Source of the DNA: a phage
Assembly (NCBI GenBank): GCA_020279385.1
Contig: GCA_020279385.1_4762.2
Reading direction: 5' to 3' (one strand)
DNA: 64,000 bases
Each line of letters opens with the position of its first letter. The stretch's first letter is position 1. Below are positions 5,488 through 63,997 of this stretch, in pieces. The notes beneath the pieces were generated by a model. It was not told the DNA's origin and searched no databases. It was given only the letters and a program-made list of their open reading frames with translations. A program made the translations under genes and the position numbers.

Positions 5488-6165
5488 ATGATCAGAAACC
5501 GTCTTCCTCCAGATCCAGATATGCGAATTAATGCTAAATCTGTGTATATGTTATATTGCATGATGAAAGCTCATATGAACGGGCGTTATGATTGCGTAAA
5601 ATATAATTGGAGGATGCGGTTGTCTGATGCCGCATTCAATAAACGCAGAGATAAGTATTATTTCGCAAAATTAGCGGAAAAGTACAATCTAAGAGAATTA
5701 TACTTCTTATTCCTAAGCAATCTGGTAGCCAATACCGATGCATGGGTAGGTGAAATCACCGATGTTGACGCATACGGCTTTTATATGGAATACATAGGAA
5801 AGATAACTGATGCAGCAACACGATTTGACGATGACATTAAAAGTCTGGTATACTTCTCAGAGAAACGCGGGGTTACTCTTAAAGAGCTAATTACATACAA
5901 TCCCGCAACCGAAACTAGCGGTATCTTTAAACTACTGCAAAATCGGATTATATCGTTTGAGTCGTTTATGTTGTTAGATAGCTTTCTAAATATAATCGAC
6001 GAACACGATAAGGTAGCCAAAGACTTGATTTGGCAAACTTATAGTGTTAAAATGAAGGCGTACAAGAAACTACTTGTTATTGACGCCGCAAAAGCAAGAG
6101 CATTATTTGTTAAAGTAGTTAAAGAGTGTAAAGAAATATCGAGGTTAAAAGGTGAAAACATATGA
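5488..6165 (+). CDS. 59: helicase loader gp59
   Basis: 225 aa; KSVYMLYCMMKAHMNGRYDCVKYNW...SNLVANTDAW...FKLLQNRIISFESFMLLDSFLNIID colinear with T4 gp59. Confidence 0.9.
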   Translation: MIRNRLPPDPDMRINAKSVYMLYCMMKAHMNGRYDCVKYNWRMRLSDAAFNKRRDKYYFAKLAEKYNLRELYFLFLSNLVANTDAWVGEITDVDAYGFYMEYIGKITDAATRFDDDIKSLVYFSEKRGVTLKELITYNPATETSGIFKLLQNRIISFESFMLLDSFLNIIDEHDKVAKDLIWQTYSVKMKAYKKLLVIDAAKARALFVKVVKECKEISRLKGENI

Positions 6166-6748
6166 TCCTGAATTGTATGCTCGTTGTCATGAACTCTTTA
6201 AATATGATAACGGTAAGCTGATTCGCAAGATATCGACAAACCGAAAGCATAAAGTCGGATCTAGAGCGGGTGGAGTTAATCCTAGTCATGGATACAGATT
6301 GGTGTGTATCGATGGTAAACATCATAAAGAGCATAGAATAATTTTCTTTATGCATCATGGATACATGCCAAAATACGTTGACCATGTTAACCGAATTATA
6401 ACAGATAATCGGATTGAAAACTTGAGAGATGCGAACGAGCAACAAAACTCAAGAAATATGGGTAAACAGAAAGGTCGATCGTCTGAATATATCGGTGTTA
6501 GTCTTTATAAACGAGATGGTAAATATGTTGCCAATATTCAGGTCGAAAGAAAGAAGTTGATATATTTGGGAATATATGTTCATGAGAAAGCGGCAGCACT
6601 TGCGAGAAACTTTGTTGCTGATGCTATAGACCCAAACTTTTTCAACAAAACAGAAGTAGTTGACATTTCTCCCGAAGAGATGTTAGAATTTGAAAATAGA
6701 AAGCCAAAACTGTTAGATATAATTGATAAAGTATTGACAAGCAATTAA
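6152..6748 (+). CDS. free-standing HNH homing endonuclease (HNH_3 + AP2-like DNA-binding domain)
   Basis: 198 aa; GTG start with GAGG RBS; HGYRLVCIDGKHHKEHRIIF...VDHVNRIITDNRIENLRDANEQQNSRN HNH motif; EYIGVS...KYVANI...IYLGIY...EKAAALARN AP2-like; inserted between 59 and 32. Confidence 0.8.
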   Translation: MKTYDPELYARCHELFKYDNGKLIRKISTNRKHKVGSRAGGVNPSHGYRLVCIDGKHHKEHRIIFFMHHGYMPKYVDHVNRIITDNRIENLRDANEQQNSRNMGKQKGRSSEYIGVSLYKRDGKYVANIQVERKKLIYLGIYVHEKAAALARNFVADAIDPNFFNKTEVVDISPEEMLEFENRKPKLLDIIDKVLTSN

Positions 6749-6808
6749 GTATCTGATATAGTATAAAACGTAAATTAATCAATAGTTAATGTATAAAGAG
6801 GTATAATT

Positions 6809-7783
6809 ATGAACATGTTTCGTCGTCAAGATAGCTCCAAACTGCAAGCTCAACTGGCCGCACTGAAAGGTGGCAACGGTTTCTCCAAAGAAGATCCGAA
6901 AGAGTGGAAGATTAAGACTGATGCAGCAGGTAACGGTGAAGCCCTGATTCGCTTCCTGCCGTCTAAGACAGAAGACGGTCTGCCGATTGTGAAACTGGTA
7001 AACCATTCCTTCAAAGTTAATGGTAAATGGTATTGGGAAAACTGCTCCAGCACCCACGGTGATTTTGATTCTTGCCCTGTGTGCAAATATATTAACGAAA
7101 AAGATCTGTACAATACCGATAAAACCGAATGGCAACTGATTAAGCGTAAAGCGTCTTACTACGCAAATATTCTGGTACTGAAAGATCCTCAAGCACCAGA
7201 AAATGAAGGTAAGGTATTCAAATTCCGCTTCGGTCAGAAAATTTATGATAAGATCGTTGCGATGGTGAACGTGAATACCGATATGGGCGAAGTTCCGGTA
7301 GATGTAACTTGTGTGTTCTCCGGTGCTAACTTCCTCCTGAAAGCTAAGAAGGTTGATAAACACCAGAACTATGATGATTCTCGTTTCATGCAGCAATCAC
7401 AGCTTCCGAAAATTGAAGACGAAGCATATCAGAAATATCTGATGGAAAACATGGTTGATCTGAGTGAGATTGTAGCGCCTAGCCAGTTTAAACCGTTCGA
7501 TGAACTGGAAACCAAATTTAAGAAAACTATGGGCGTTTCTATGGTAGCTGGTGCTGCGGCTTCCAGTGCCGCGGCAGCGATTAACAGCCAGCTTGACGAT
7601 TTTGACGCACAGATGAATGCATTCGATTCTGGTATGACCGCAGCTAGCACTGTAGTTGGTATTAACGCAGCTAGCACGGCGTTAGATTCTTCCGCTGATG
7701 ACCTGATGGCATCTCTGGATCTGGGTGGCGGTACTTCCTCCGCTTCTGATCTGGATGACCTGGATTCTCTGTTAGCGATGTAA
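6809..7783 (+). CDS. 32: single-stranded DNA-binding protein gp32
   Basis: 324 aa; LPSKTED...[23 protein letters not shown] (zinc site), [43 protein letters not shown], acidic C-terminus; strongly T4 gp32-like. Confidence 0.95.
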
Positions 7784-7795
7784 TGAATTTTACAG

Positions 7796-7820
7796 CCTCC
7801 CTTCGGGGAGGCTTTTTTAT
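7796..7820 (+). terminator. rho-independent terminator after gene 32
   Basis: Hairpin CCTCCC-TTCG-GGGAGG followed by CTTTTTTAT. Confidence 0.8.
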
Positions 7821-7845
7821 TGCCTAAATTTTTATGAAAAAGGTG

Positions 7846-7873
7846 TTGACATGCTGATGTTAGGATGTATAAT
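7846..7873 (+). promoter_or_regulatory. sigma70-type early promoter (TTGACA-16-TATAAT) with conserved leader
   Basis: TTGACA 7846-7851, TATAAT 7868-7873, leader acaaacatcgaaacaaaggagga before ATG 7904. Confidence 0.7.
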
Positions 7874-7903
7874 ACAAACATCGAAACAAAGGAGGATAAA
7901 ATT

Positions 7904-9082
7904 ATGTTAGTACGTCAAGCACATGAGATTCGTATAGAAATAAAAGGAAACACGAAAACTCCCTTCTATTGGGAAAATGTTGTAAAAAATTCATGTTTGG
8001 AAGTTGGTTATTCTTTCATGGGGTTTGTTGGAGAATGGTCTGGTCTCAAAACAAAAGCTCTTATATTATGTAATAACAAGCATGAATACACATCAACTCT
8101 AGCAAATATCAGGAAAAAAGTTTCGTGTAAGAAATGTGTGGTTGATTCTCAAAGATTAAACCTAAACCATGTGATAGAAAGAATAAAACAAGAAACAAAC
8201 GATGTATTTGTTGGTTTTGTTGGTGGGGAGTATAAAAATAGCAGAACAAGACTCATTATGAACTGTGCAAACGGACACACATACCAACCAACATATACAG
8301 ATTTCATTCATCAAAAAACAAGATGTCCTTTATGTAACGGTGGCAAGATGTATGATAAAGAAGATTCCTTATCTTATATAAATGAAAATAAAGGAGATTA
8401 TAAATTTTTGGGTATAATTGGGGAATGGAAAGGAACAAAAACTAAACTTAAATTTGAGTGTCCTAATAATCACATTTACGAACAAAGTTATGATAAGTTC
8501 AAACTAGGTCGTCGGTGTCACAAATGTAGCGGAACAGCACCAATAACAAAAAGTGACCGATTAAAACAAATTGAAAAAATATGCGAAACCAACAGACTAA
8601 AATTTATTGGGATTTCAGGAAAGTGGAAAGGTGCATTAACAAGAATACTTCTGACATGCGAACGTAACCATGAATGGGTTGTAACTATTGATAATTTTGT
8701 TAATCGCGGAACACGCTGCCCGTTGTGTTCTAAGCATGGTTATCAGGCATTAAAGACAGGAACTCTTTATATACAGAAATTAACCAACAATGATTCCTTT
8801 GTTGGCGTGAAATTTGGAATAACAAACAAAGAAACACATGAGCGCATGAGAAACCAATCTCGTGTTTCAAAGTTCGATCACGAGATCTTTTATGAATTGA
8901 CTTTACAAGATGGTCAAAAGATCTTAGAATTAGAAAACAAAATCAAGGAAGCGATGAAAGGTAAAACTTCCTATATCTCGAAAGAAGATATGCCGGATGG
9001 CTGGACAGAGACAGTAGCGCCGTCTGAATTGAGCACTATCATGTATATCGTAAAATCTTTTGAAAAAGAGTTGACAGCGTAA
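7904..9082 (+). CDS. protein with four tandem Zn-ribbon repeats and C-terminal GIY-YIG-like (T5orf172-type) domain
   Basis: Four ~50-aa repeats of form F(V/L)G..GEW.G.KTK...C...H.Y.......C..C; C-terminus LYIQKL...FVGVKFGITNKETHERMRN...DGWTE; start set at ATG 7904 (track start 7865 lies inside the promoter). Confidence 0.6.
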   Translation: MLVRQAHEIRIEIKGNTKTPFYWENVVKNSCLEVGYSFMGFVGEWSGLKTKALILCNNKHEYTSTLANIRKKVSCKKCVVDSQRLNLNHVIERIKQETNDVFVGFVGGEYKNSRTRLIMNCANGHTYQPTYTDFIHQKTRCPLCNGGKMYDKEDSLSYINENKGDYKFLGIIGEWKGTKTKLKFECPNNHIYEQSYDKFKLGRRCHKCSGTAPITKSDRLKQIEKICETNRLKFIGISGKWKGALTRILLTCERNHEWVVTIDNFVNRGTRCPLCSKHGYQALKTGTLYIQKLTNNDSFVGVKFGITNKETHERMRNQSRVSKFDHEIFYELTLQDGQKILELENKIKEAMKGKTSYISKEDMPDGWTETVAPSELSTIMYIVKSFEKELTA

Positions 9083-9098
9083 CGCAACAGTGTATAAT
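9071..9098 (+). promoter_or_regulatory. sigma70-type early promoter (TTGACA-16-TATAAT) with same leader as the 7846 promoter
   Basis: TTGACA 9071-9076, TATAAT 9093-9098, leader acaaacatcgaaacaaagagagg; overlaps 3' end of previous CDS. Confidence 0.7.
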
Positions 9099-9129
9099 AC
9101 AAACATCGAAACAAAGAGAGGATTATATT

Positions 9130-22211: not shown

Positions 22212-22680
22212 AATTGATATCTATGCGGGTGGACCTTATCCATCTGGTGAATTGAGTAATTTCAATAAAAGACCATTCCGTCTATTTGGTTGCGATATTA
22301 ACAGCACAGAAGGATTTTTACAGGGGCTAAGATTTAAGAACCCTCAGAGACAAAGAGAAATCTTTTTGATGCACGGTGGCAAAGCAAAAAGAACCGGAAG
22401 AACTGAAAAGATTGAGAATCACATGTTATATTTTCAGGGTCGCCCGATTCATCGAATGAGTGAGCATTATTACAGACTGGTACATCTGGCATTTGTTACG
22501 ATGGCACGGAATAACCCAGAATTTTGTAAAGCATTACTCGCTACCGGAAATAAGAAATTACGTCATAGCATAGGTGGAACTGATCCGTTAAAGACTATAT
22601 TGACTGAATCGGAATTTTGTAGTATCCTCAATGATATTCGTGAACGTTTAACAAAACGAGGTGAAAATGTCAATTCTTAA
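22201..22680 (+). CDS. NADAR / YbiA-like domain protein (putative ADP-ribosyl- or N-glycoside hydrolase)
   Basis: 159 aa; ELSNF...F......STEGFLQGLRF resembles the YbiA/NADAR FSNF...TSEHYFQA.KF core; LLATG and GGTDP segments also align with YbiA-like proteins. Confidence 0.5.
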   Translation: MTSEIDIYAGGPYPSGELSNFNKRPFRLFGCDINSTEGFLQGLRFKNPQRQREIFLMHGGKAKRTGRTEKIENHMLYFQGRPIHRMSEHYYRLVHLAFVTMARNNPEFCKALLATGNKKLRHSIGGTDPLKTILTESEFCSILNDIRERLTKRGENVNS

Positions 22681-24163
22681 TATCATTAACCAGCTTGCAG
22701 CGACCGACAAAACATCGCTGAAAGAAAAGATTCTGAAAGAATCCGCGAGCAATGAAACGCTGAAAGAATGCTTTTATCTGGCATATTGCAAACAGGTTAC
22801 GTTTGGCGTAAAGAAATACGATAAACCATCGCGCTATTCGTCTGTATTGTCTTTATCCGGTGCATTACAGGTCTTTAAAAATAAACTTGCCACGCGTCAA
22901 GTAACTGGTAATGCAGCATTACAGCTAGTTACCGATACTCTGACTTGCTTGTCAGAGGATGATGCTAAAGTTGCAATGATGGTCCTGAATCGTGATCTGG
23001 AATGCGGTTGTTCCGCCACCACTGCAAACAAGGTATGGAAGAAACTGATCCCCCAGCAGCCGTGTCACCTTGCATCGTCATATTCTGATAAGGCTATTGC
23101 TAATATCAAGTATCCGGCGTATGCACAACTTAAAAGCGATGGTGCTCGTGGTATGGCTGATATTGACGGGGAAACATTAGCAATCTATACCCGTTCAGGT
23201 AATACCTATCAGGGACTTGATGATTTGTTTGCGGTTTTAGAGCGTCTACGAGGCCGTGGAATTGTTCTAGATGGCGAATTGGTATATATGCCTACCCTTT
23301 CGCAAACACCAGCGCAGAACTTCGTTGAGAGCGTTTATGATGGTACTCTGTCATGGATATTTGAAGAAGAGGAAATGCCATTAACGCCAGTAGCGGAAGC
23401 AGTAAAAGAATCCGTTGTTGCAGACCGTCAGACCGGAAATGGTATCCTCAACAAATCACTTAAAGGAACTATTCCAAAAGAAGAAGCCCAATGTATTGTT
23501 TATACTGTCTGGGATGTTATCGACCGTGATGTGTATTACGGAAACGAGAAAGCAACGAAGCAATATAAAGATCGATTCGAAGAACTAAAACAGATTGTTG
23601 AAGAACTTAACGATCCTCGTGTTCAGATAATCGAAAATACTGTAGTTAACAATATCGATGAAGCTCGCGAAGTATATCATCGCTATGTAAACATGGGCTT
23701 AGAAGGTATTATCCTTAAAAATTTACATGGTGTATTTGAAGATCGTCGCAGTAAAGATCAGGTTAAATTTAAAGAAGTGATTGACTTCGACGCTGAAATT
23801 GTTGATGTATATCCGCATAGTAAAGATCCTAATAAGGTAGGCGGTTTTACTGTCCGTAGTGCGTGCGGACGAATGATGACTAACACCGGATCGGGATTAA
23901 CCGACACCACAACCGAAAAAGGTGATGATGGTATTGAACGTGTAATTCCGTTCGATCGTCGAAATGAACTCGACCGAGAAATGTTATGGGCTGACCGTCA
24001 TAACCTGATTGGAAAAGTCATTGAGATGACATGCAACGGGTACATTCGCAGCAAATCACGTAAAGAAGATGAACCGGAGTTCTCTTTATTTCTCCCGATC
24101 ATCAAACGTATTCGCTACGACAAGACCACTGCAAATACAGTAAAAGAGGTATTCGATGTGTGA
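22667..24163 (+). CDS. 30: ATP-dependent DNA ligase
   Basis: ~498 aa; KSDGAR adenylation lysine motif, LDGELVY, NGILNKSLKGTIPKEEAQC, GLEGIILKN, KFKEVID, GGF; colinear with T4 DNA ligase; ATG 22667 after RBS GAGGTG. Confidence 0.9.
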   Translation: MSILNIINQLAATDKTSLKEKILKESASNETLKECFYLAYCKQVTFGVKKYDKPSRYSSVLSLSGALQVFKNKLATRQVTGNAALQLVTDTLTCLSEDDAKVAMMVLNRDLECGCSATTANKVWKKLIPQQPCHLASSYSDKAIANIKYPAYAQLKSDGARGMADIDGETLAIYTRSGNTYQGLDDLFAVLERLRGRGIVLDGELVYMPTLSQTPAQNFVESVYDGTLSWIFEEEEMPLTPVAEAVKESVVADRQTGNGILNKSLKGTIPKEEAQCIVYTVWDVIDRDVYYGNEKATKQYKDRFEELKQIVEELNDPRVQIIENTVVNNIDEAREVYHRYVNMGLEGIILKNLHGVFEDRRSKDQVKFKEVIDFDAEIVDVYPHSKDPNKVGGFTVRSACGRMMTNTGSGLTDTTTEKGDDGIERVIPFDRRNELDREMLWADRHNLIGKVIEMTCNGYIRSKSRKEDEPEFSLFLPIIKRIRYDKTTANTVKEVFDV

Positions 24164-24632
24164 TAATGAAGGGGCGAAAGCCCCTAAACCTAAAAAATTG
24201 TCAAAGAAAGAGCAACGCCAGATCCTGAAAATGAAATACGGTGGACGTTGTGCCTATTGTGGCGAGGAACTAGGGGATCGCTGGCACGCAGACCACATCA
24301 AACCAGTATTGCGACGCTCAAAAGTAGTCTATGATGAAAATGGACGAATTGCCCGTAATGATGATGGATCGTGGAAGTATAAGGTTGTAGGAATGCATAA
24401 ACCGGAACATGATATACTTGATAACATGAATCCGTCGTGTGTGCAATGCAATCTTTATAAAAGCTGTATGGGCTTAGAATACTGGCGTAAGTGTATACGC
24501 GAGAACTTCCAGAAATACATTCAGCGCAATATGGGGTTGCGAGCGGCTAAACGCTTTGGCTTACTGTCAATCCACGACCAGCCAGTAGAATTTTATTTCG
24601 AAAAGTATGAGCGCGAGCATCAAGAAAAATAA
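24156..24632 (+). CDS. HNH endonuclease
   Basis: 158 aa; CAYCGEELGDRWHADHIKPV...NMNPSCVQCNLYK HNH zinc-finger nuclease motif; start overlaps ligase stop. Confidence 0.75.
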   Translation: MCDNEGAKAPKPKKLSKKEQRQILKMKYGGRCAYCGEELGDRWHADHIKPVLRRSKVVYDENGRIARNDDGSWKYKVVGMHKPEHDILDNMNPSCVQCNLYKSCMGLEYWRKCIRENFQKYIQRNMGLRAAKRFGLLSIHDQPVEFYFEKYEREHQEK

Positions 24633-24645
24633 TTCAAAAAAGTTG

Positions 24646-24674
24646 TTGACAGGGGATCACCGATCCCCTATACT
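24646..24674 (+). promoter_or_regulatory. PeSL-like promoter cassette (TTGACA-17-TATACT)
   Basis: Palindromic spacer GGGGATCACCGATCCCC; leader acacataccgaaacgaactaggagaatcaa. Confidence 0.7.
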
Positions 24675-24708
24675 ACACACATACCGAAACGAACTAGGAG
24701 AATCAATT

Positions 24709-24888
24709 ATGAACTTCAACGAAATCATCGCTAAAATCCGCTACAACGAAGAAACCATTGAACTGATGCAAAACAATATCACCAATGGTTATATGATTGC
24801 AGCGTCACAAGAAATCATTGATTTGACGGTAGCAGAAAATGCTCAGTTGAAACATCAACTTTCAACGGCTGGCGTGATTGTTATGTAA
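24709..24888 (+). CDS. hypothetical small protein (59 aa)
   Basis: ATG 24709 after cassette leader; track start 24607 precedes the promoter. Confidence 0.45.
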   Translation: MNFNEIIAKIRYNEETIELMQNNITNGYMIAASQEIIDLTVAENAQLKHQLSTAGVIVM

Positions 24889-24905
24889 TAAAGAGAGGTG
24901 ACTAA

Positions 24906-25208
24906 ATGGCAAAAGTTAAGGTAGGCGAGGTCTTCAAAATGGAAGACCACACCGTGGAAGAGATGAAAGGCGCAGTATTGAAAGTAACTAATTCAATGTG
25001 TCGTAGTGTGCTTTACATCAACTTTATAGACGGTGATGTGTGGTGGGCTAGCGATAGCGATAAATGGGATATCAAGTTCTACAAAGGTCATACTCACTGG
25101 TTAGGAACAGAGGATGTTGTAGAAGTTCTGGCGGTTGATGTTATGCCAGGCGAGATCGAAAGTCTTAGCGGAACCGCAAAAGAAGCATTGACACGCCATT
25201 TTGTGTGA
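24906..25208 (+). CDS. small protein, HxHW-LAVDV paralog family member
   Basis: 100 aa; C-terminal KGHTHWLGTEDVVEVLAVDV motif shared with five neighbouring ORFs. Confidence 0.5.
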   Translation: MAKVKVGEVFKMEDHTVEEMKGAVLKVTNSMCRSVLYINFIDGDVWWASDSDKWDIKFYKGHTHWLGTEDVVEVLAVDVMPGEIESLSGTAKEALTRHFV

Positions 25209-25214
25209 TATAAT
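25188..25214 (+). promoter_or_regulatory. possible sigma70-like promoter (TTGACA-15-TATAAT)
   Basis: TTGACA 25188-25193, TATAAT 25209-25214; short spacer, followed by hairpin GGGAG...CTCCC. Confidence 0.35.
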
Positions 25215-25265
25215 ATAACAATCATTGGGAGGGGTAATACTCTCCCACAAATTGAGGATAATATT

Positions 25266-25457
25266 ATGTGTGGTCTTAAAATGGTTGCTGAATATAAGCG
25301 AACTGGTAATATTATTATGTATCGACGCAATGCCAACGAAGACTGGAAACCTTCCAACCGCATTAAATCCATCCAGACGTTTATGAATAACATCAAAGAA
25401 AACCTTTTCGTTAAGCGTGTTGGCGCTGAACATTGGGAAGTTTACGAAGCTGTATAA
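25266..25457 (+). CDS. hypothetical small protein (63 aa)
   Basis: RBS GAGGA + ATG. Confidence 0.45.
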   Translation: MCGLKMVAEYKRTGNIIMYRRNANEDWKPSNRIKSIQTFMNNIKENLFVKRVGAEHWEVYEAV

Positions 25458-25473
25458 TTTTGAGGAAAATATT

Positions 25474-25776
25474 ATGGAACGTACCAATTTGTTTGTAACC
25501 GAACCTTTCGTTGAAGGAAACAAGAACCTTGCTAATACGGTTATTCTTTACGAAGATTGGATCTTTTACATCGATGAGAATTTAGATGTATATTGTCGTC
25601 CAACCCCAAATGACTCATTCTATATCGAAGAAAACGATACCCATAATCATTGGTATGACGGAAACGACGAAACCGATCTTGCTATTGTTCTCGAATCCGG
25701 CGTAGAATCGGAACATGCCGATGAAGTAGCAGACAAATTTATGAAATACGCATATAAAGATAAAGTTGAAGAATAA
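25474..25776 (+). CDS. small protein, HxHW paralog family member
   Basis: 100 aa; WIFYIDENLDVY and THNHWYDG...LAIVLE motifs; ATG 25474 (track start 25417 is inside previous gene). Confidence 0.5.
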   Translation: MERTNLFVTEPFVEGNKNLANTVILYEDWIFYIDENLDVYCRPTPNDSFYIEENDTHNHWYDGNDETDLAIVLESGVESEHADEVADKFMKYAYKDKVEE

Positions 25777-25784
25777 AAAAGTTG

Positions 25785-25813
25785 TTGACAGGGGATCGGT
25801 GATCCCCTATAAT
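25785..25813 (+). promoter_or_regulatory. PeSL-like promoter cassette (TTGACA-17-TATAAT)
   Basis: Palindromic spacer GGGGATCGGTGATCCCC; near-identical to cassettes at 29045 and 31421. Confidence 0.75.
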
Positions 25814-25846
25814 GCACACATACCAACGAGATATAGGAGAATCAAA

Positions 25847-26014
25847 ATGTTCCAGACTAAAGCAGAATGCGAAGCATACATTGTAGCAAACCACGGTGAA
25901 GACTACCTGAAATTCGATATCGTAGTAGCACAGAAGATCACCGGAATGGTTGCAAAATATCTAGGTGTTAAAGAAGGTTACTATCCAAGCAACGCACCAG
26001 AAATTAACAAATAA
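25847..26014 (+). CDS. hypothetical small protein (55 aa), paralog of the 29107 ORF
   Basis: MFQTKAECEAYIVANHGEDYLKFDIVVAQK... about 85% identical to the 29107 product. Confidence 0.5.
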   Translation: MFQTKAECEAYIVANHGEDYLKFDIVVAQKITGMVAKYLGVKEGYYPSNAPEINK

Positions 26015-26017
26015 TAG

Positions 26018-26046
26018 TTGACAATGATTAAAGGGAGTAGTAAGAT
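26018..26046 (+). promoter_or_regulatory. PeSL-like promoter cassette (TTGACA-17-TAAGAT)
   Basis: Hairpin GGGAGTA...TACTCCC spans -10; leader catcaagacaacaaacggagaatcaaa. Confidence 0.6.
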
Positions 26047-26078
26047 ACTCCCATCAAGACAACAAACGGAGAATCAAA

Positions 26079-26258
26079 ATGAAAGCTATCGAAGTTCAGA
26101 AGTACATGGAACTCATCATTGAAGGTAAAGCACATACAGTATTGACTACCAACGTAGGATATGATAAAAATGTGCATATGCTGGTAGACAATATCGGCTG
26201 GATGAAGTTTAATCCTAATGAGAATGTACAAGCTCAAGAAATGACCATCCCTTTCTAA
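26079..26258 (+). CDS. hypothetical small protein (59 aa)
   Basis: ATG after cassette leader; below track cutoff. Confidence 0.4.
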   Translation: MKAIEVQKYMELIIEGKAHTVLTTNVGYDKNVHMLVDNIGWMKFNPNENVQAQEMTIPF

Positions 26259-26270
26259 GAGGAATATATT

Positions 26271-26549
26271 ATGATGCGAATTACTGCAACGCTGGATAAG
26301 ACACACAAAGAAAGATTTTTCGGTATGATCTTAAAAACGCCGATTTTCGATAATTACCTTTATGTTGACTATGAAGGCCATATTAGCTATAAATGTAAAA
26401 ATGATATTCGTGATTCCTTTGGTGATAAATCACAAGCTGATATTCACGATCATTGGTGGACCTTCGACGAACCTTTACGGATTATCGCAGTTGATGTAAA
26501 AACAATAAAAGAAGCTGATAAGGTAGTTAACGATTATGAGCAAATTTAA
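26271..26549 (+). CDS. small protein, HxHW-LAVDV paralog family member
   Basis: 92 aa; YLYVDYEGHISY and IHDHWWTFDEPLRIIAVDV. Confidence 0.5.
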   Translation: MMRITATLDKTHKERFFGMILKTPIFDNYLYVDYEGHISYKCKNDIRDSFGDKSQADIHDHWWTFDEPLRIIAVDVKTIKEADKVVNDYEQI

Positions 26550-26745
26550 AGACTATAAAGCATATCAACAGATCCTGCGAGTATACGCACCAGAGTTCGC
26601 CGAAAAGATGATGGAAGATGCATCAAAATGCCCGTCCTTTTCTGGAAACAAAAACCATTATTCGACTGGTATTGTGTCATGGAAAGAAACCGCATATACT
26701 CAACAATGGATAGATGTGTTTTCAAAAACTCTTGAGTGGTGTTAA
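26536..26745 (+). CDS. hypothetical small protein (69 aa), tandem paralog A
   Basis: MSKFKDYKAYQ... shares N-terminus and Cys/Trp pattern with next ORF. Confidence 0.5.
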   Translation: MSKFKDYKAYQQILRVYAPEFAEKMMEDASKCPSFSGNKNHYSTGIVSWKETAYTQQWIDVFSKTLEWC

Positions 26746-26747
26746 TT

Positions 26748-26963
26748 ATGAGCAAATTTAAAGATTATCGAGCATATAAAGCGATCTGCGATATATTCGA
26801 TGAAAAGACCGCTCATGAAATGATGGAAGATGCAGAACAATATGAATCATTCGTCAATTCCAAAGATTGCACAGTAAACGGGATTGTGTGCTGGAAAGAT
26901 ACAAAGTATGAAGAAAAATGGATTACCGTGTATTACGGAGAACTAGAATATGAAATTAACTAA
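26748..26963 (+). CDS. hypothetical small protein (71 aa), tandem paralog B
   Basis: MSKFKDYRAYK...; ATG 26748. Confidence 0.5.
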   Translation: MSKFKDYRAYKAICDIFDEKTAHEMMEDAEQYESFVNSKDCTVNGIVCWKDTKYEEKWITVYYGELEYEIN

Positions 26964-27270
26964 AAAGATTTTCCCAGAATTGCGTAACTGTCTGTTATTG
27001 GTTACTGAATATAAGCCGTATACGATCTACTTGTATGTTGATGAAAATCTGAAAATCCGTTACTATGATTATACGTCTCCAGTGATGAAATCATTTGCTC
27101 ACTCGATAGCAAATAACTGTATGAATCACAATCATTGGGTATCAGAAACGGATGACGATGCGTCAGAAGTTGTAGTGGTTGCATGGAATCTATCACCAGC
27201 GGAAGCAGATCAAGCACGCATTAAGCATTATGCGAAAAACAATTGGTTTGACCTTATAAGTGAGGACTAA
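26950..27270 (+). CDS. small protein, HxHW paralog family member
   Basis: 106 aa; IYLYVDENLKIRYYDY and NHNHWVSE...VVVVAWN. Confidence 0.5.
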   Translation: MKLTKKIFPELRNCLLLVTEYKPYTIYLYVDENLKIRYYDYTSPVMKSFAHSIANNCMNHNHWVSETDDDASEVVVVAWNLSPAEADQARIKHYAKNNWFDLISED

Positions 27271-27274
27271 TATT

Positions 27275-27553
27275 ATGTTCAAAGTAGGTGATAAGTTTAT
27301 TCTTAGTCGTGATATTCTCCCTAATCTGAAAGGTTGTATCATCAATCCTAGTAAAAATTCATGGTTTTATCTGTTTATCGACGACAAACTGAATGTACGC
27401 GCAGAATATAAAGAAGGTCTTCGTACTGGTCTAGGTTTCTTTCACGATCATGATCATAGCCATTGGTTAAACGGTGGATTCGAAGCAACGGTGCTAGCGG
27501 TTGACGTGACCTACACAAACATCATAGAAAAATATCAAAAAATTATTTTATAA
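27275..27553 (+). CDS. small protein, HxHW-LAVDV paralog family member
   Basis: 92 aa; WFYLFIDDKLNV and HDHSHWLNGGFEATVLAVDV; ATG 27275 with RBS GTGAGGA. Confidence 0.5.
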   Translation: MFKVGDKFILSRDILPNLKGCIINPSKNSWFYLFIDDKLNVRAEYKEGLRTGLGFFHDHDHSHWLNGGFEATVLAVDVTYTNIIEKYQKIIL

Positions 27554-27559
27554 AAAGTG

Positions 27560-27588
27560 TTGACACCGGATCGGGGATATAGCATAAT
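27560..27588 (+). promoter_or_regulatory. PeSL-like promoter cassette (TTGACA-17-CATAAT)
   Basis: Hairpin GGGGATAT...ATATCCCC spans -10; leader catcgaaacgagataca...aggagaatcaaa. Confidence 0.7.
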
Positions 27589-27634
27589 ATCCCCATCGAA
27601 ACGAGATACACTTTCTAACTAGGAGAATCAAATT

Positions 27635-27922
27635 ATGGCATACATTACTATCACTCTGAAAGTTAACAAATTTGCTCACGCTGCACACGAAACAGACAAT
27701 GCAATCCGTAACAACAAGTTCGCACGTCTGGTACGCGATGCAGTAGCTAAAGAGTTCAACTTCAAATTTGCAGACGGTAAAGTTATCACTAAATGGACTC
27801 ATGACGGAGAAACTAAAGTAGAACTTGCTGATAACTTCGCAAATCAGGAATATGCACACCGTCGCATTAATGAAATTATCAGCGATGAACTCTACTACGG
27901 TGTACAGGAAGGACTGTTTTAA
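27635..27922 (+). CDS. hypothetical protein (95 aa)
   Basis: ATG after cassette. Confidence 0.5.
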   Translation: MAYITITLKVNKFAHAAHETDNAIRNNKFARLVRDAVAKEFNFKFADGKVITKWTHDGETKVELADNFANQEYAHRRINEIISDELYYGVQEGLF

Positions 27923-27927
27923 TATAC

Positions 27928-27952
27928 GGGGCGTTAAGCCCCACCCCTTTTC
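27928..27952 (+). terminator. rho-independent terminator
   Basis: GGGGC-GTTAA-GCCCC hairpin then ACCCCTTTTCAT; same hairpin recurs at 31705. Confidence 0.65.
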
Positions 27953-27975
27953 ATCCAACTATTGAGGATAATACT

Positions 27976-28284
27976 ATGAAAGATAATATCTTTGAATTTA
28001 CCCGCGAAAATCTCCCAATGTTCCGAAAGTCTCTGCTTAAACTAGAGAACAGCAATTACAACGTATATTTTTACATCACCGAAGACCTAGAGATCCTTTA
28101 CGCAGATTATCCAGGTCCGATCCGTACCTTCGAAGAAGCATCGCAGTATAAAAATGTTCACGGTCATGAGCACTGGTTACGAGAAAACCCAGGTCGCAAG
28201 AAAGCACGCGTTAAAGTGTTGGCGATTGACATAACACCAGCATACGCCGACCGGATTGCACTGAATGATTATTTGTCTAAATGA
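27976..28284 (+). CDS. small protein, HxHW-LAxD paralog family member
   Basis: 102 aa; VYFYITEDLEILYADY and HGHEHWL...KVLAIDI. Confidence 0.5.
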   Translation: MKDNIFEFTRENLPMFRKSLLKLENSNYNVYFYITEDLEILYADYPGPIRTFEEASQYKNVHGHEHWLRENPGRKKARVKVLAIDITPAYADRIALNDYLSK

Positions 28285-28292
28285 TTTCATTA

Positions 28293-28320
28293 GCCGACCT
28301 TAGTGTCGGCTTTTTTATTT
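28293..28320 (+). terminator. rho-independent terminator
   Basis: GCCGAC-CTTAGT-GTCGGC hairpin followed by TTTTTTATTT. Confidence 0.8.
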
Positions 28321-28339
28321 CCAAAAATTAAAAAAGTTG

Positions 28340-28368
28340 TTGACACCTGATCACGCCTATAGCACAAT
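28340..28368 (+). promoter_or_regulatory. PeSL-like promoter cassette (TTGACA-17-CACAAT)
   Basis: Same architecture and leader (acacatcgaaacgagataccacttaggagaatcaaa); -10 slightly degenerate. Confidence 0.55.
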
Positions 28369-28408
28369 ACACACATCGAAACGAGATACCACTTAGGAGA
28401 ATCAAACA

Positions 28409-28678
28409 ATGGCACTGACTAAAACCACTACCAACTTTGCAAAACGTCACGGCTTCGACCTTGAAATCAATAGCTTTAACGATTACACCCTTCTGTGTGT
28501 ATATGAAATCGAAAATGATTGCGAGTGGATGTTCAGCTATCGCGTAAACGAAGACGGATCTTTCACTTGGAACGGAAATATCTATCTTGCACAGGAAGTA
28601 AAAGAAGAACTTCCGGCGACTATCAAAGATGAGAAACATTTACGTCAAGTTTTAAAATTTATTTCTGAAAATATCTAA
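28409..28678 (+). CDS. hypothetical protein (89 aa)
   Basis: ATG after cassette. Confidence 0.5.
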   Translation: MALTKTTTNFAKRHGFDLEINSFNDYTLLCVYEIENDCEWMFSYRVNEDGSFTWNGNIYLAQEVKEELPATIKDEKHLRQVLKFISENI

Positions 28679-28686
28679 AAAAGTTG

Positions 28687-28715
28687 TTGACACCAAAGTA
28701 AGAACATAGCATAAT
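28687..28715 (+). promoter_or_regulatory. PeSL-like promoter cassette (TTGACA-17-CATAAT)
   Basis: Leader acacataccgaaacgaactggagaatcaaa. Confidence 0.65.
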
Positions 28716-28748
28716 ACACACATACCGAAACGAACTGGAGAATCAAAA

Positions 28749-29030
28749 ATGAAATTCATCAAAGCAACCGAAATCCTGAAAAACAAAGAAGCATACATCG
28801 GAAACATCGTTGGTATGAACATTCGCGGCGCTGGTAGCCAGTGGACCAAACTGGTTGATGTTAAAGCTAAAGGCGATAAAATTGAGTTCACTGTAAAAAT
28901 GCTTACTCATAACGCACATATGGGTATCAAGACAAAAACGATGGCCGCAGATAAAAGCATCAACTATCAAGATCTGGGCGATTGGTTGAACTGGTGCAAA
29001 ATGCACAACATCGAAACTAATCACGAATAA
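28749..29030 (+). CDS. hypothetical protein (93 aa)
   Basis: ATG after cassette. Confidence 0.5.
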   Translation: MKFIKATEILKNKEAYIGNIVGMNIRGAGSQWTKLVDVKAKGDKIEFTVKMLTHNAHMGIKTKTMAADKSINYQDLGDWLNWCKMHNIETNHE

Positions 29031-29044
29031 TTTTAAAAAAGTTG

Positions 29045-29073
29045 TTGACGGGGATCGGGAGATCCCCTATAAT
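29045..29073 (+). promoter_or_regulatory. PeSL-like promoter cassette (TTGACG-17-TATAAT)
   Basis: Palindromic spacer GGGATCGGGAGATCCCC; copy of the 25785 cassette. Confidence 0.7.
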
Positions 29074-29106
29074 ACACACATAACGAAACGAAATAGGAGA
29101 ATCAAA

Positions 29107-29274
29107 ATGTTCGAGACTAAAGCAGCATGTGAAGCATATATCATTGAAACCCACGGCGAAGATTATCTGAAATTTGACATTGTAGTAGCACAGAAGATTG
29201 TAGGGATGGTTGCGAAATACCTCGGAGTTAAAGAAGGTTACTATCCTAGCAACGCACCAGAAATTAACAAATAA
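29107..29274 (+). CDS. hypothetical small protein (55 aa), paralog of the 25847 ORF
   Basis: MFETKAACEAYIIETHGEDYLKFDIVVAQK...; below track cutoff. Confidence 0.5.
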   Translation: MFETKAACEAYIIETHGEDYLKFDIVVAQKIVGMVAKYLGVKEGYYPSNAPEINK

Positions 29275-29288
29275 TTTTATAAAAAGTG

Positions 29289-29317
29289 TTGACAGGGGAG
29301 GATAACTCCCCTACAAT
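29289..29317 (+). promoter_or_regulatory. PeSL-like promoter cassette (TTGACA-17-TACAAT)
   Basis: Palindromic spacer GGGGAGGATAACTCCCC; leader caaccatcaagacgagataccacttaggagaatcaaa. Confidence 0.65.
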
Positions 29318-29357
29318 ACAACCATCAAGACGAGATACCACTTAGGAGAATCAAACA

Positions 29358-29609
29358 ATGGCTAACATCGAAACCGCAAAGAAAATCGCTAAAGACCTGA
29401 ACGTTAAAGGCTTCCGTAAACTGAAATTACAGCGTGTACGCTACACCATCGGCAAACAGTGCTCTTTCATGAGCGAAGAAGTTGCTAACAGCCTCATTGA
29501 TAACCTGATTGCGGCTGGCTGGGAAGTTGCGGATCTGAAAACTTGCCGCGAACTGGCTAACAAAGGTCTTTTAGATTCTGTTACTATCAAACCAATGGGG
29601 GCAGCGTGA
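29358..29609 (+). CDS. hypothetical protein (83 aa)
   Basis: Starts MANIE, sharing its first 16 nt with the 31486 ORF. Confidence 0.5.
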   Translation: MANIETAKKIAKDLNVKGFRKLKLQRVRYTIGKQCSFMSEEVANSLIDNLIAAGWEVADLKTCRELANKGLLDSVTIKPMGAA

Positions 29610-29851
29610 AAAGAAAATTAATTAAACGCAATAAGGAATTTCTTAATAACTGCATTAAGGCCGCTAATGGTTGGCCTTTGTTCCTCTTCCTTTATGATTG
29701 GTATTCTAAACAATCGGTAGAGGAAACACGACACTATAAGAAGATCAGAAAAGAATCATATACAAAACAAGGCCGCATTAACGGACTTTACTTAATGTGG
29801 CACGGCAAAGAACCTTCTAAAATCTGTGTTGGATTAAAGGGGCGTATATGA
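29606..29851 (+). CDS. hypothetical basic protein (81 aa)
   Basis: GTG start overlapping previous stop; Lys/Arg-rich; uncertain. Confidence 0.35.
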   Translation: MKRKLIKRNKEFLNNCIKAANGWPLFLFLYDWYSKQSVEETRHYKKIRKESYTKQGRINGLYLMWHGKEPSKICVGLKGRI

Positions 29852-61626: not shown

Positions 61627-62460
61627 TTAAAATTCTCTTACAATACGTGGACCCGGTGGAGTCGGTGCAACTGGTATTGGAATATCACTAGAATATGATT
61701 CTTTGATAGTTCCGTCCCAATCTTCTTGCTCGACGTCACGTTTAACGACCTCGTGATCCACTGATTCAAAATTACCGCTAGGATTCAATTCACGAGAATT
61801 GGCATGAAAATCAAGATAAATCGTTCTGATTTCCCCCTTAACGTCGGTAGCTGGAGGATATATAAACCCGATAAATTCGAACATAATGGTCCACTCAAGA
61901 CGACGACGAGAAAACTTATCTTCGCCTACCTGTTCATCTGGAGTAATAGAACTAATTGTGACCTGAATATCTCGATCAATCCATACATCATTACCGTGTA
62001 GTTCTTTAATCTTACAGTTAAAATGAGGCTGGAAGTAAGGAAGAATCTGTTCAATTATTTGAAACATATCATCTTCGTTACGCGTATAAATCCCTAACTC
62101 GAAAGTAAACTTATATGGTACAGGATTATATTGTGTTACGCTCCTGATTCCATCAGCCGTATATTTTGGTACTGTCTTATTTGCAATATTGGTTTTAAAG
62201 TTCTGGGCGTATGTCATATCAATCAAAGAAAGACACATACGCGGTAAAATAGTTTCTACCTTTGCTACGTCTTCCTCACTTGAGATATTGTTATATTTGT
62301 CCAGACTCATCATGAATTTTTCTTTCTTTGCGTAGGTGATAGGAACTTTAATAAACCGCTCACCGTCACTACGCACCCTTTTAATTTGTACGCCGGAGAA
62401 TAAATTACCCAGCAATACAATATACCGTCTAATTGACGAATTGTAAAAATGTGAAAACAT
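61627..62460 (-). CDS. 15: tail completion / sheath stabiliser gp15
   Basis: 277 aa; synteny and length. Confidence 0.75.
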   Translation of the reverse strand: MFSHFYNSSIRRYIVLLGNLFSGVQIKRVRSDGERFIKVPITYAKKEKFMMSLDKYNNISSEEDVAKVETILPRMCLSLIDMTYAQNFKTNIANKTVPKYTADGIRSVTQYNPVPYKFTFELGIYTRNEDDMFQIIEQILPYFQPHFNCKIKELHGNDVWIDRDIQVTISSITPDEQVGEDKFSRRRLEWTIMFEFIGFIYPPATDVKGEIRTIYLDFHANSRELNPSGNFESVDHEVVKRDVEQEDWDGTIKESYSSDIPIPVAPTPPGPRIVREF

Positions 62461-63216
62461 TTATTCATATCTCCATGTAGGAAACTTATCTGAGAGAAGT
62501 CTAGCTTTAACCGTTTTATAACTTATACCAAACATTTTAGCTGCATCACTCAAAATATAAAATTCCATATCGTCGATGAAGAATCTTTTTGCCCTAAAGT
62601 GTTGTTTTCCTCTCGGTGTATTTTGCGTTATTGCTGCCACATGTTCTGGGGGTAGTTTTCTCCCTGTTAATTTTGCCGCAACCTTCTCTCCTATATCTGG
62701 TCGTTTCTTTCCTCGCCACGTTTTACCTATTTTGAACTTGTGTTCTTCTGTGAACTTTCTTCCTGTGTTTGCCTTCTTTAGCGCGTCTATCTGCTTCTGT
62801 GATAGCTTATGACCTTTGAATCTTGCGCTAACCTTATCTCTAGATTCTTGCTTCCATACTCTATTTCGGTTTGCTTCTGCGTGTCTTTCGCTTGCAAGTT
62901 TTCTTCGTTCTTCGCTCATCCCAGCGTGAGTATTTCCACCTTGTCCACCAACCGAAACATTATAGGTATCTTCTCTTTTTACAAATTCCTCTGTAACTAT
63001 TTCTCTTTCTGCTTTCCTTGCCTCTTTCCATGAGTCAAACGTTTTGAGAATTGTTTTTGTGAAGTTTTCTATCCCGTTCTTTTTAATAGACCTCTTAAGA
63101 GTCAATCCACTACCCATATAAGGATCTTGACTTATGTCACCATCATACCCACGAATGCCAACATATATCTTACCATTTATATTGTTCTTTATTTCGTATA
63201 GATAATAGTTTTTCAT
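62461..63216 (-). CDS. free-standing GIY-YIG homing endonuclease (Seg-like) between genes 15 and 14
   Basis: 251 aa; N-terminal YLYEIKNNINGKIYVGIRG GIY-YIG motif; basic repeat region; ends with HTH-like module. Confidence 0.75.
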   Translation of the reverse strand: MKNYYLYEIKNNINGKIYVGIRGYDGDISQDPYMGSGLTLKRSIKKNGIENFTKTILKTFDSWKEARKAEREIVTEEFVKREDTYNVSVGGQGGNTHAGMSEERRKLASERHAEANRNRVWKQESRDKVSARFKGHKLSQKQIDALKKANTGRKFTEEHKFKIGKTWRGKKRPDIGEKVAAKLTGRKLPPEHVAAITQNTPRGKQHFRAKRFFIDDMEFYILSDAAKMFGISYKTVKARLLSDKFPTWRYE

Positions 63217-63256
63217 AAGTCATTAGATCCTTATATTATATCAATACAAGTATTTA

Positions 63257-63997
63257 TCAAAAATCGGCGAAAGGTGAACCCTTGCCATTAATAGGATCAA
63301 ACGGATCAATAAAATCTTGTCCTTCGATTCTGAATTGCTTATCTTCTTTGTACTGATCTAAGTTGATATCTGTTAACCCGTCCAGATTAGTGATCGGTGC
63401 AAGATCCAGATCCGCAAACTCATCAACATTAATTCCCTCATTGCGTTGTAATTCTGGTCGCAATTCCTCACCGCTATACACGAATTTCTCTGCAATAATT
63501 TTACGCATGGCATTTTTGCCAGCCTGAAAAAACGGCTGATATGGCTCGACGTAATTGATTTCAAAGAGATCATTACTCATTGGAATATAAATTAAGTCAC
63601 CTGATTTTGGCTCTTGATCATCTACTTGATGCTTGAATAGGTTGGGGTTAACCGTAAAAGTTAATTCATCATTAGCTTGATACCCGAAACTAGAGAAGAA
63701 ATTACCCGCTCCTTCATACCCATCAAATGAGTTAATATAAGCCGCAAATTTCCATGCTTTAGTAAATTTGCTTTGAACATCCTCACCAAAGATCATATCT
63801 GGTTTGACAAATTCACGAGGGATGTAATATAATTCTACACCTCGCATCTGAATAGCTTCGGCGACCATAACGTCGGCTAACGTCTGGGTGTTTGTATGAC
63901 GGTTGAAATTTACGTAAGGATTGAGAATCTCGGTTTGTCGTGTATTCTCATAATCCTTTTGCGATTCAAGGCGAGCAAAAAGAGTGTTGTTAAACAT
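63257..63997 (-). CDS. 14: neck protein gp14
   Basis: 246 aa; [39 protein letters not shown] colinear with T4 gp14. Confidence 0.85.

Follow-up and report, generated by a model that had tools for sequence, protein, structure and literature searches.

Genes A and C, two nuclease genes lodged beside conserved essential genes of a T4-type phage, are probably free-standing homing endonuclease genes (HEGs) that spread by intron-less homing, with gene B as a fixed resident gene and gene D as a fourth, polymorphic nuclease-like cassette. All four lie in the window, a stretch of 64,000 nucleotides that belongs to Krischvirus, the RB49-like T4-type coliphages, and shares 94-99% nucleotide identity with RB49, Skers, JSE and others. 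The initial annotation of this DNA had described three mobile insertions, namely A between genes 59 and 32, B after the DNA ligase gene, and C between genes 15 and 14. The ORF list and the domain matches bear out the coordinates and strands of these three ORFs, with nuclease domains in all of them, and Pfam matches identify the flanking genes (59/32, ligase, 15/14) as they had been named. The description as mobile insertions holds for A and C, which are polymorphic and younger than their flanks, but not for B, which adjoins the ligase gene in every genome compared. The list of three nuclease genes was, in addition, incomplete, as a fourth nuclease-like gene, D, is found at 7904-9082.

The comparison set consists of the 59 records in which the ligase backbone is present, corresponding to ~53 distinct Krischvirus genomes. 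Junction boundaries were obtained from pairwise alignments together with whole-gene alignments of filled and empty alleles, which for the gene A junction covered five filled alleles, five empty ones and a single diverged one. Across the 64 kb, the only insertions longer than 500 bp that are specific to the window with respect to RB49 are A and C. Clean empty alleles are present in RB49, GEC-3S and Sf20, among others. The two genes assort independently: both are carried by G2494, MIZ4, MIZ5 and FL20, eight genomes carry A only, and four carry C only.

Gene A (6152..6748, plus strand) encodes a free-standing HNH_3 + AP2-like endonuclease of 198 aa, identified from its ORF, Pfam and phrog_99 (E=1.5e-50). 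Its left flank is gene 59, coding for the helicase loader (5488..6165, plus strand; Pfam T4_Gp59_N and T4_Gp59_C), and its right flank is gene 32, coding for the ssDNA-binding protein (6809..7783, plus strand; Pfam gp32, E=1e-51), which is at the same time the left flank of gene D. Translation starts at a GTG preceded by a GAGG ribosome-binding site, with an overlap of 14 nt with the gene 59 stop. The HNH domain is well supported (Pfam HNH_3, 43.6 bits, cut-off 24.8, spanning positions 4-46 of the 46-position profile), and the DH, N and N positions are present in YVDHVNRIITDNRIENLRDANEQQN. The AP2 part scores 23.4 bits in Pfam, under the cut-off of 33.3, and matches the WRI1 AP2 domains in the PDB (E=0.0018); the isolated HNH region gave no nuclease match in the PDB. 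RB49p040, a protein annotated as HNH + AP2, shares 41% identity with A across both domains, and A-like genes are detected by tblastn in 2,499 phage records. To our knowledge, no Krischvirus member of the HNH-AP2 family has been shown to cleave DNA.

Twelve of the ~53 Krischvirus genomes carry gene A, every time between genes 59 and 32. The segment linked to its presence was delimited by pairwise and multiple alignments to 6141..6835 (plus strand), and the linked changes are base-precise and confined to it. This segment comprises changes to the final ~8 codons of gene 59, gene A itself, a promoter and 5' UTR of gene 32 that have diverged, and changes to codons 1-9 of gene 32, a gene that in empty alleles begins with MFKRQDSS. 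The junction measures 652 bp in the window and 66 bp in RB49. The minimal insert can be narrowed to ~6141-6741, because in E26 the HNH gene is combined with a promoter and a gene 32 start of the empty type. The promoter of the window is a sigma-70-type early promoter of gene 32, TTGACA-17-TATAGT (6734..6762, plus strand; 11/12 match), whose -35 box lies inside the 3' end of gene A and which takes the place of the TTGACA/TATAAT promoter of the empty allele; an early promoter is annotated at the homologous place in the RB49 and GEC-3S records. Among carriers, the A cassette shows 0-3 differences per 668 bp in 4 of 5 cases, against 9-26 differences per flank (p ~2e-4). A second A allele is present in E26 and 011D4, with a dS of 0.69 and a dN/dS of 0.14, and the protein has therefore been kept functional.

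Gene C (62461..63216, minus strand) encodes a 251-aa endonuclease of the free-standing GIY-YIG (Seg/I-TevI-type) class, as indicated by Pfam, PHROGs, PDB and tblastn matches. Upstream of it lies gene 14, for the neck protein (63257..63997, minus strand; Pfam T4_neck-protein, E=2e-101), and downstream gene 15, for the tail sheath stabiliser (61627..62460, minus strand; Pfam T4-gp15_tss, E=2e-97), whose ATG is immediately abutted by the TAA stop of C. A GIY-YIG domain forms the N-terminal part of the protein and an I-TevI-type DNA-binding domain its C-terminal part, with a NUMOD3-like linker in between. The C-terminal domain passes its threshold (Pfam I-TevI_DNA-bd, 31.7 bits, cut-off 27, residues 203-250), and the other modules score below theirs: NUMOD3 with 18.0 bits (cut-off 20.4), SegE_GIY-YIG with 20.1 (cut-off 25) and TIGR01453 'group I intron endonuclease' with 40.2 bits (E=3.7e-10, cut-off 56). 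C also matches phrog_314 'homing endonuclease' (E=1.3e-46). Full-length C retrieved no PDB entry by phmmer, and the best PDB match of the isolated N-terminal domain is a weak one to the I-TevI catalytic domain (E=0.3), which aligns LYEIKN...KIYVG to IYQIKN...KVYVG. By tblastn, C shares 35-41% identity with the seg genes of T4, T6 and IME08 (segD), with E-values down to 5e-19 and 41% for T4/T6, and C-like genes are found in 886 phage records, including five places in T4; outside Krischvirus the best identity is ~44% at most. On these sequence matches, a GIY-YIG catalytic domain is recognised in gene C.

Gene C is carried by 9 records, equivalent to 8 of the ~53 distinct genomes, always between genes 14 and 15 and always at least 99.7% identical. 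The sites linked to it are confined, with the same base precision as for A, to 62443..63248 (minus strand), where 803 bp stand in place of 33 bp of the empty allele that span the 14/15 spacer and codons 1-5 of gene 15. As a consequence, gp15 begins with MFSHFYNS in the window and with MFGWHYNS in empty alleles. Copies of C differ among carriers at 0-2 positions per 806 bp, compared with up to 47 per 749 bp of flank (Fisher p ~2e-10). The flanks of Sf20, which is empty, are essentially identical to those of the window and TB34, which are both filled.

The mechanism proposed for A and C is intron-less homing, as described for SegF and SegG of T4 (PMC2993671). In a mixed infection, the A or C enzyme would cut the DNA of a co-infecting relative without the gene, in or close to the junction, and the break would be repaired by recombination off the nuclease-carrying genome, so that the gene and a short flank would be copied into the recipient. 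The carrier allele would escape its own enzyme through its interrupted junction and the different opening codons of the neighbouring essential gene. Domains, exact boundaries, the pattern of presence and absence, relative ages and selection are shown directly; cleavage by these proteins, their target sites, their homing and the exclusion of markers would all follow from analogy with characterized relatives. For marker exclusion, which the initial annotation had attributed to the three genes, the precedents are again SegF and SegG, and on this basis A and C may drive it. Flank polymorphisms tied to the presence of the nuclease genes, as co-conversion tracts would leave, do not extend past a few codons, and flank variants are shuffled with respect to which genomes carry the genes. 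This pattern is compatible with very short tracts or with later recombination, and gives no positive sign of break repair. Some seg and mob genes of T4 reportedly have hairpins that sequester the ribosome-binding site; for A, B, C and D, folding of the region from -45 to +25 round the starts gave z-scores of -0.5 to +1.2, with nothing notable.

Gene D (7904..9082, plus strand) follows gene 32, the position that in T4 is presumably held by segG. It encodes a nuclease-like protein, 392 aa long, in which Pfam recognises four treble-clef zinc-finger repeats of the CapR/DUF4379 type (CapR, 101.6 bits over 4 stretches; DUF4379, 44.1 bits) and which matches phrog_681, labelled 'endonuclease' (E=3e-100). 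The true start is the ATG at 7904, which has a GGAGG ribosome-binding site; the ATG at 7865 given in the ORF list falls within the -10 box of a promoter. The C-terminal domain is conserved and of a putative nuclease type. For the catalytic domain, a search with permissive Pfam settings returned a weak MUG113 match (E=0.09), the AlphaFold model has a pLDDT of 54, the profile of D found no match in the PDB, and NCBIfam and PHROGs were uninformative. Likewise, no nuclease Pfam domain was found in 8 close relatives drawn from a search of 5.8 billion proteins. By eye, the stretch GTLYIQK...VKFGIT resembles a GIY-YIG motif. Gene D is missing from JSE, E26 and Makalu_002, and its product ranges from 182 to 485 aa in other relatives (182 in MIZ4, 281 in Sf20). 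On sequence grounds it counts as a fourth polymorphic nuclease-like gene.

The surroundings of gene D differ from those of A and C. An early promoter TTGACA-16-TATAAT with its 5' UTR lies upstream (7846..7891, plus strand; promoter 7846-7873, 12/12 match), and this promoter recurs with its 5' UTR downstream (9071..9116, plus strand; promoter 9071-9098, 12/12 match), where it serves the gene after D. Both copies contain an exact direct repeat of 26 bp (7866-7891 and 9091-9116), found twice where 0 copies are expected by chance, and an intrinsic terminator (7794..7813) stands just upstream of the first promoter. JSE, in which D is absent, has a single promoter copy. Only D thus lies between repeated early-promoter/stem-loop motifs, the arrangement that characterises PeSL cassettes, and A and C do not. 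Gain and loss of D may have occurred by homing or by recombination between the duplicated promoter repeats; the flanking duplicated promoters suggest the second, PeSL-type route.

Gene B (24156..24632, plus strand) encodes a small zinc-finger-type HNH nuclease of 158 aa (Pfam HNH, 26 bits, cut-off 21.4; phrog_2118, E=1.6e-54) with the layout CxxC...HADH...CxxCN. Its ATG overlaps by 8 nt (ATGTGTGA) the stop of gene 30, the upstream gene for the ATP-dependent DNA ligase (22661..24163, plus strand; Pfam DNA_ligase_A_M), whose start is annotated in relatives as MSILN, two codons inside the ORF of the window. The initial annotation had proposed the comparison of the same junctions among relatives as a check on mobility, with the presence of the same gene in all relatives as the result that would speak against it. 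A and C show the presence/absence polymorphism, and B does not: it adjoins the ligase gene in 59/59 records. An apparent sixtieth record lacking B was dismissed, as only 59 records have the ligase and B is in all of them. For the same ten genome pairs, the dS of B is 0.07-0.14 and that of the ligase 0.10-0.14, so that B is neither younger than its flank nor discordant with it, and its dN/dS is 0-0.055. Fixation, a ligase-like dS and a low dN/dS together identify B as a fixed resident gene under selection, and not as a currently mobile insertion in Krischvirus. Fixation is the usual end-point of a successful homing element, and residence does not exclude a homing-gene origin for B. The gene was probably acquired a single time, at or before the base of the genus, and is now kept by purifying selection, probably translationally coupled to the ligase. 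Just downstream of B there are dispersed repeats of 70-90 bp and variable small ORFs.

Two more specific roles for B were considered and rejected. The match to endonuclease VII (gp49) is below threshold (Pfam Endonuclease_7, E=0.08, 13.3 bits, cut-off 23.6), and a substitution of this enzyme is discarded because RB49 already possesses a canonical gene 49 (RB49p061), to which B is no more than marginally similar, BLASTP of B against RB49p061 aligning only 33 residues (E=0.008). A terminase-associated HNH function is unsupported because the contexts of its relatives vary (750 bp upstream of a terminase gene in Bas77, beside a ParB-like gene in Solent, and elsewhere in the Morganella phage Mm5) and because Krischvirus packages its DNA with gp16/gp17.

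The presence and absence of the nuclease genes could also arise from general or repeat-mediated recombination, of the kind seen in the shuffling of PeSL cassettes in RB49 and phi1, with the genes as passive cargo and the nucleases playing no role. The surroundings of D agree with this, as the duplicated perfect early promoters, the 26-bp repeat, the upstream terminator and the single promoter of JSE reproduce the PeSL architecture of PMC2839356; so do the repeats and variable small ORFs past B and the fact that the early promoter of gene 32 has its -35 box where the minimal A insert ends on the right. A and C, however, have no flanking direct repeats, C resides in a late structural operon without an early promoter, and both genes replace unique sequence of the empty allele and change codons of neighbouring essential genes. 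Both also encode intact nuclease and DNA-binding architectures under purifying selection. Such features are hallmarks of homing genes and unlike the ORFan cargo typical of PeSL, and the reading of the genes as passive cargo is considered improbable. Their ancestral presence in the genus, followed by repeated precise loss, would turn the polymorphism into a sign of decay instead of invasion. Cycles of fixation, decay and loss are well known in homing genes, and the shortened forms of D in MIZ4 and Sf20 look like decay. Ancestral genes would nevertheless have diverged together with their flanks, as B has, whereas the copies of A and C are near-identical among carriers with flanks up to 6% apart, and no truncated remnant of either gene is present among the 59 records. 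Moreover, the empty alleles hold conserved sequence of 33 bp (C) and 66 bp (A) that is missing from the filled ones and that a simple deletion cannot make, which leaves ancestral loss as a highly improbable explanation next to homing.

For B, and possibly for the other genes too, the question is whether the nuclease is selfish at all, as it could have been domesticated to help the phage, either in DNA metabolism together with the ligase or by excluding competitors. A purely selfish nuclease should decay once fixed, and B is intact, present in 59/59 records, constrained like the essential ligase (dN/dS <=0.055 at a dS of ~0.1) and overlapping the ligase stop with its start. The varied contexts of its relatives fit a mobile gene family instead, the substitution of endonuclease VII is ruled out, and ongoing homing against other genera could equally keep selection on B. 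Domestication in this broad sense is somewhat unlikely. The narrower proposal that B is not selfish but a genus-wide domesticated HNH nuclease, working or co-expressed with the ligase that it overlaps, is regarded as unlikely; if true, it would explain why B stays intact under purifying selection of ligase level after fixation, and the role of B could then be nick-and-seal activity in the metabolism of phage DNA, or an attack on rival T4-type phages by cutting their ligase region.

Free-standing HEGs beside essential genes are a textbook trait of T4-type phages, and A and C, members of two very common phage nuclease families, are ordinary in this respect and add little that is new. GenBank records such as those of JSE, Skers and TB34 already list copies identical to both as homing endonucleases, and the uneven HEG counts of RB49, phi1 and JSE were tabulated in 2010 (PMC2993671). 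The gain lies in the correction, by which, of the three, A and C alone are currently mobile, B is fixed and under selection, and D is added. The exact empty and filled junction sequences can, furthermore, serve directly as substrates when cleavage and marker exclusion are tested in this group of phages, which is now in therapy use.

Among known systems, gene A is closest to the HNH-AP2 HEGs ('IPA-HNH' in Barth et al. 2023; the 'HNH-AP2' class of Petrov et al. 2010, with RB49 ORF040), with which it shares an N-terminal HNH_3 domain, followed by a candidate AP2-like one, and a location beside essential replication genes, a setting that PMC10448857 reports for the family. It differs in position, as RB49p040 sits at 47/55 and A at 59/32. 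Gene C shares with SegF and SegG of T4 the architecture class, with an N-terminal GIY-YIG and a C-terminal DNA-binding domain, and a free-standing location between conserved essential genes that is polymorphic among close relatives; it differs by its junction (14/15, in the late structural operon) and by its lineage. The likeness of C to I-TevI, encoded by the group I intron of the T4 td gene, is weak and consists of the alignment of the GIY/YIG motifs and the I-TevI_DNA-bd match; I-TevI sits in an intron and C is free-standing.

Gene D, for its part, resembles the T5orf172/CapR HEGs of ICP1 and T5-like phages (Barth et al. 2023), a family also located beside essential genes, in its four tandem CapR-type zinc-finger repeats, in its variable repeat number and in its polymorphism beside an essential gene, all features described in PMC10448857. 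It differs from them in that its T5orf172 or GIY-YIG-like catalytic domain is only putative and in its duplicated flanking promoters. These promoters bring it near the PeSL cassettes of RB49 and phi1 (Arbiol et al. 2010, PMC2839356), which usually carry small ORFans in hyperplastic regions. From these cassettes A and C differ by having no such repeats and, in the case of C, by its place in a late operon. Gene D is instead bracketed as they are, with a terminator and an early promoter on one side and the repeated promoter and 5' UTR on the other, and past B there is likewise a variable stretch of small ORFs and dispersed repeats.

High-identity megablast matches of three window regions, searched against 50,697 phage records, are restricted to Krischvirus phages (RB49, phi1, JSE, GEC-3S, Skers, and around 50 others). 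The whole window is also collinear with RB49, at 92-98% identity, and these two observations indicate that it is part of an RB49-like ("pseudo-T-even") T4-type coliphage. The initial annotation had described three free-standing homing-endonuclease-like genes, and both their positions and the names of the neighboring genes (59, 32, ligase, 15, and 14) are right. Gene A (6152-6748, plus strand), between genes 59 and 32, holds an HNH_3 domain that passes the Pfam cut-off and an AP2-like one that does not; two matches back the AP2 assignment, one in the PDB to WRI1, a plant AP2 factor, and one to RB49p040 (annotated as HNH + AP2, 41% identity). Gene B (24156-24632, plus strand), which follows the DNA ligase gene, holds an HNH domain above the cut-off with a CxxC...HADH...CxxCN layout. 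Gene C (62461-63216, minus strand), between genes 14 and 15, combines an I-TevI-type DNA-binding domain that exceeds the cut-off with significant homology to seg genes of T4, T6, and IME08; its top PDB match is the I-TevI catalytic domain, in an alignment spanning the GIY and YIG motifs.

Each gene was used alone as a query in the phage records. A is found in 12 records, 10 at 98.6-100% identity and two (E26 and 011D4) at 83%, and C in nine, representing eight distinct phages, with every copy at least 99.7% identical. B is found in 59 records, and a query with the ligase gene's 3' portion retrieves the same 59, each with B directly adjoining. Removal of six GenBank/RefSeq duplicates leaves about 53 genomes, of which 12 carry A, eight carry C, and all carry B. 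Variable presence among relatives, the check suggested in the initial annotation, thus holds for A and C but not for B, so that its interpretation of the genes is partly supported; a fourth cassette, D, had been overlooked. A and C assort independently: eight phages have only A, four have only C, and both are found together in G2494, MIZ4, MIZ5, and FL20. They are also the only window-specific insertions of more than 500 bp with respect to RB49 over the whole 64 kb: at A, the window has 652 bp against 66 bp in RB49, and at C it has 803 bp against 33 bp.

At the 14/15 junction, the allele with C substitutes for the 33 bp formed by the spacer and codons 1-5 of gene 15, so that the gp15 N-terminus reads MFSHFYNS in the window versus MFGWHYNS in empty alleles, and the C stop codon directly abuts the gene 15 ATG. 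No C-linked sites are found outside 62443-63248, beyond which Sf20, which has the empty allele, hardly differs from the window and TB34, both of them filled. Within gene 14 (63554-63800), JSE and pEJ01 show dense substitution clusters, partly common to both and absent from other phages; this patch is a recombination mosaic unrelated to the presence of C.

At the 59/32 junction, homology to empty alleles is lost at 6141, within the final eight codons of gene 59; there the filled allele gains a GAGG ribosome-binding site and the GTG codon that starts A. Full homology resumes from about 6836. In the interval, gene 32 keeps its promoter, 5' UTR, and first nine codons in diverged form, the 3' end of A contains part of a strong promoter (TTGACA-17-TATAGT), and gp32 has an N-terminal sequence different from the MFKRQDSS start of empty alleles. 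In E26, the diverged allele contains the HNH gene together with a promoter and gene 32 start of the empty type, which places the minimal insert at about 6141-6741, ending on the right at the gene 32 -35 box. The two A alleles show a dS of 0.69 (1.1 in the central part) and a dN/dS of 0.14, and their first 40 codons are nearly identical. By this pattern, the A lineage is old, has kept its function, and has recombined at the 5' end.

Copies of C in different carriers have 0-2 differences over 806 bp, compared with up to 47 over 749 bp in the flanks (Fisher p ~2e-10), and copies of A have 0-3 over 668 bp in four of five carriers, compared with 9-26 per flank (p ~2e-4). Both genes are therefore younger than their backbones, which indicates recent horizontal spread. 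The opposite history, in which the empty alleles arose by precise loss, is unlikely because these alleles hold conserved sequence missing from the filled ones and no remnants of A or C were found in the 59 records. Intron-less homing is the best-supported reading of A and C. The enzyme would cut a target site in a co-infecting relative's empty allele, and the nuclease gene would then be copied into the recipient by recombinational repair, while the carrier allele would be protected by disruption of the junction and alteration of the first codons of the neighboring essential gene. Such homing may also underlie the marker exclusion proposed in the initial annotation. The sequence comparisons establish the domains, boundaries, polymorphism, relative age, and selection; cleavage, its target site, homing, and marker exclusion are inferred. 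No co-conversion tract beyond a few codons is visible at either junction.

B behaves as a fixed gene. Across ten genome pairs, synonymous divergence of B (0.07-0.14) matches that of the ligase (0.10-0.14), and its dN/dS is 0-0.055. B has co-diverged with the genus, as strongly constrained as the essential ligase itself. An AAGAGG ribosome-binding site precedes its ATG, which overlaps the stop codon of the ligase gene. Outside Krischvirus, relatives are less than 50% identical and lie in varied contexts: next to the terminase in Bas77, next to a ParB-like gene in Solent, and at a different locus in the T4-like Morganella phage Mm5. The family has therefore probably been mobile over long times, with the Krischvirus copy fixed. 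A role of B as a replacement for endonuclease VII is ruled out, RB49 having a canonical gene 49 and the similarity being marginal.

Directly 3' of B lies a block of variable small ORFs (24619-24713 and 24619-31500), which explains the lower coverage in some relatives. RB49 has 764 bp extra at 24617/24618, and a 70-90 bp motif at 24625-24713 recurs at four scattered positions of RB49 (87-93% identity). These repeats fit the promoter-stem-loop (PeSL) repeats of hyperplastic regions.

D (7904-9082, 392 aa), directly after gene 32, encodes a nuclease-like protein with zinc-finger repeats of the CapR type, four in number, followed by a conserved C-terminal domain; searches for a nuclease domain in it did not confirm one. 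It is missing in JSE, E26, and Makalu_002 and measures 182-485 aa in other relatives. Two perfect early promoters with a common exact 26-bp repeat flank the gene, with a terminator upstream, the whole arrangement spanning 7794-9116; JSE, where D is absent, has a single promoter copy. The arrangement is that of the PeSL cassettes known from RB49 and phi1 (PMC2839356), and D could therefore move by repeat recombination, homing, or both. The combination of A, C, and the 392-aa form of D is found in none of the records of the phage collection. Skers has A and D and is absent from the C-carrying records, and the four phages with both A and C show about 75% coverage around genes 32 and D, with D truncated in MIZ4. 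By these comparisons, the window is a distinct mosaic of modules already known.

RB49 lacks A; between its genes 47 and 55 (locus L025, 26380-26934) lies a different HNH-AP2 gene, RB49p040, with 41% identity to A. Further paralogs of about 40% identity lie elsewhere in other Krischviruses, and the family is spread over several alternative sites in the genus. In FL15, the terminase large-subunit gene (gene 17; locus L026, 297-3113), mis-annotated as DnaB helicase, is interrupted within the Walker A motif (SRQLGK|T) by 331 in-frame residues that include a LAGLIDADG domain, features that identify the insertion as an intein. By match length, the same intein is present in ELT3, FL04, Makalu_002, and Makalu_003. 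The insertion point falls at about 60627/60628 in the window (minus strand, between K164 and T165), whose gene 17 is the intein-less allele, with a downstream extein 100% identical to that of FL15.

A and C belong to classes that are huge in phages, HNH-AP2 (2,499 records) and Seg-like GIY-YIG (886 records). Unequal counts of homing endonuclease genes (HEGs) were tabulated for RB49, phi1, and JSE by Petrov et al. 2010 (PMC2993671), with one seg-like gene in JSE and an "other HNH" in RB49 and phi1. HEG differences between RB49 and phi1 were noted by Arbiol et al. 2010 (PMC2839356), and HNH-AP2 and T5orf172/CapR HEG families beside essential genes were described by Barth et al. 2023 (PMC10448857). 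GenBank already annotates copies identical to A and C as homing endonucleases, and homing-type genes of this kind in Krischvirus are therefore already known and ordinary. The precedent for the homing proposed for A and C is SegF and SegG of T4, for which intron-less homing has been shown in experimental work cited in PMC2993671.
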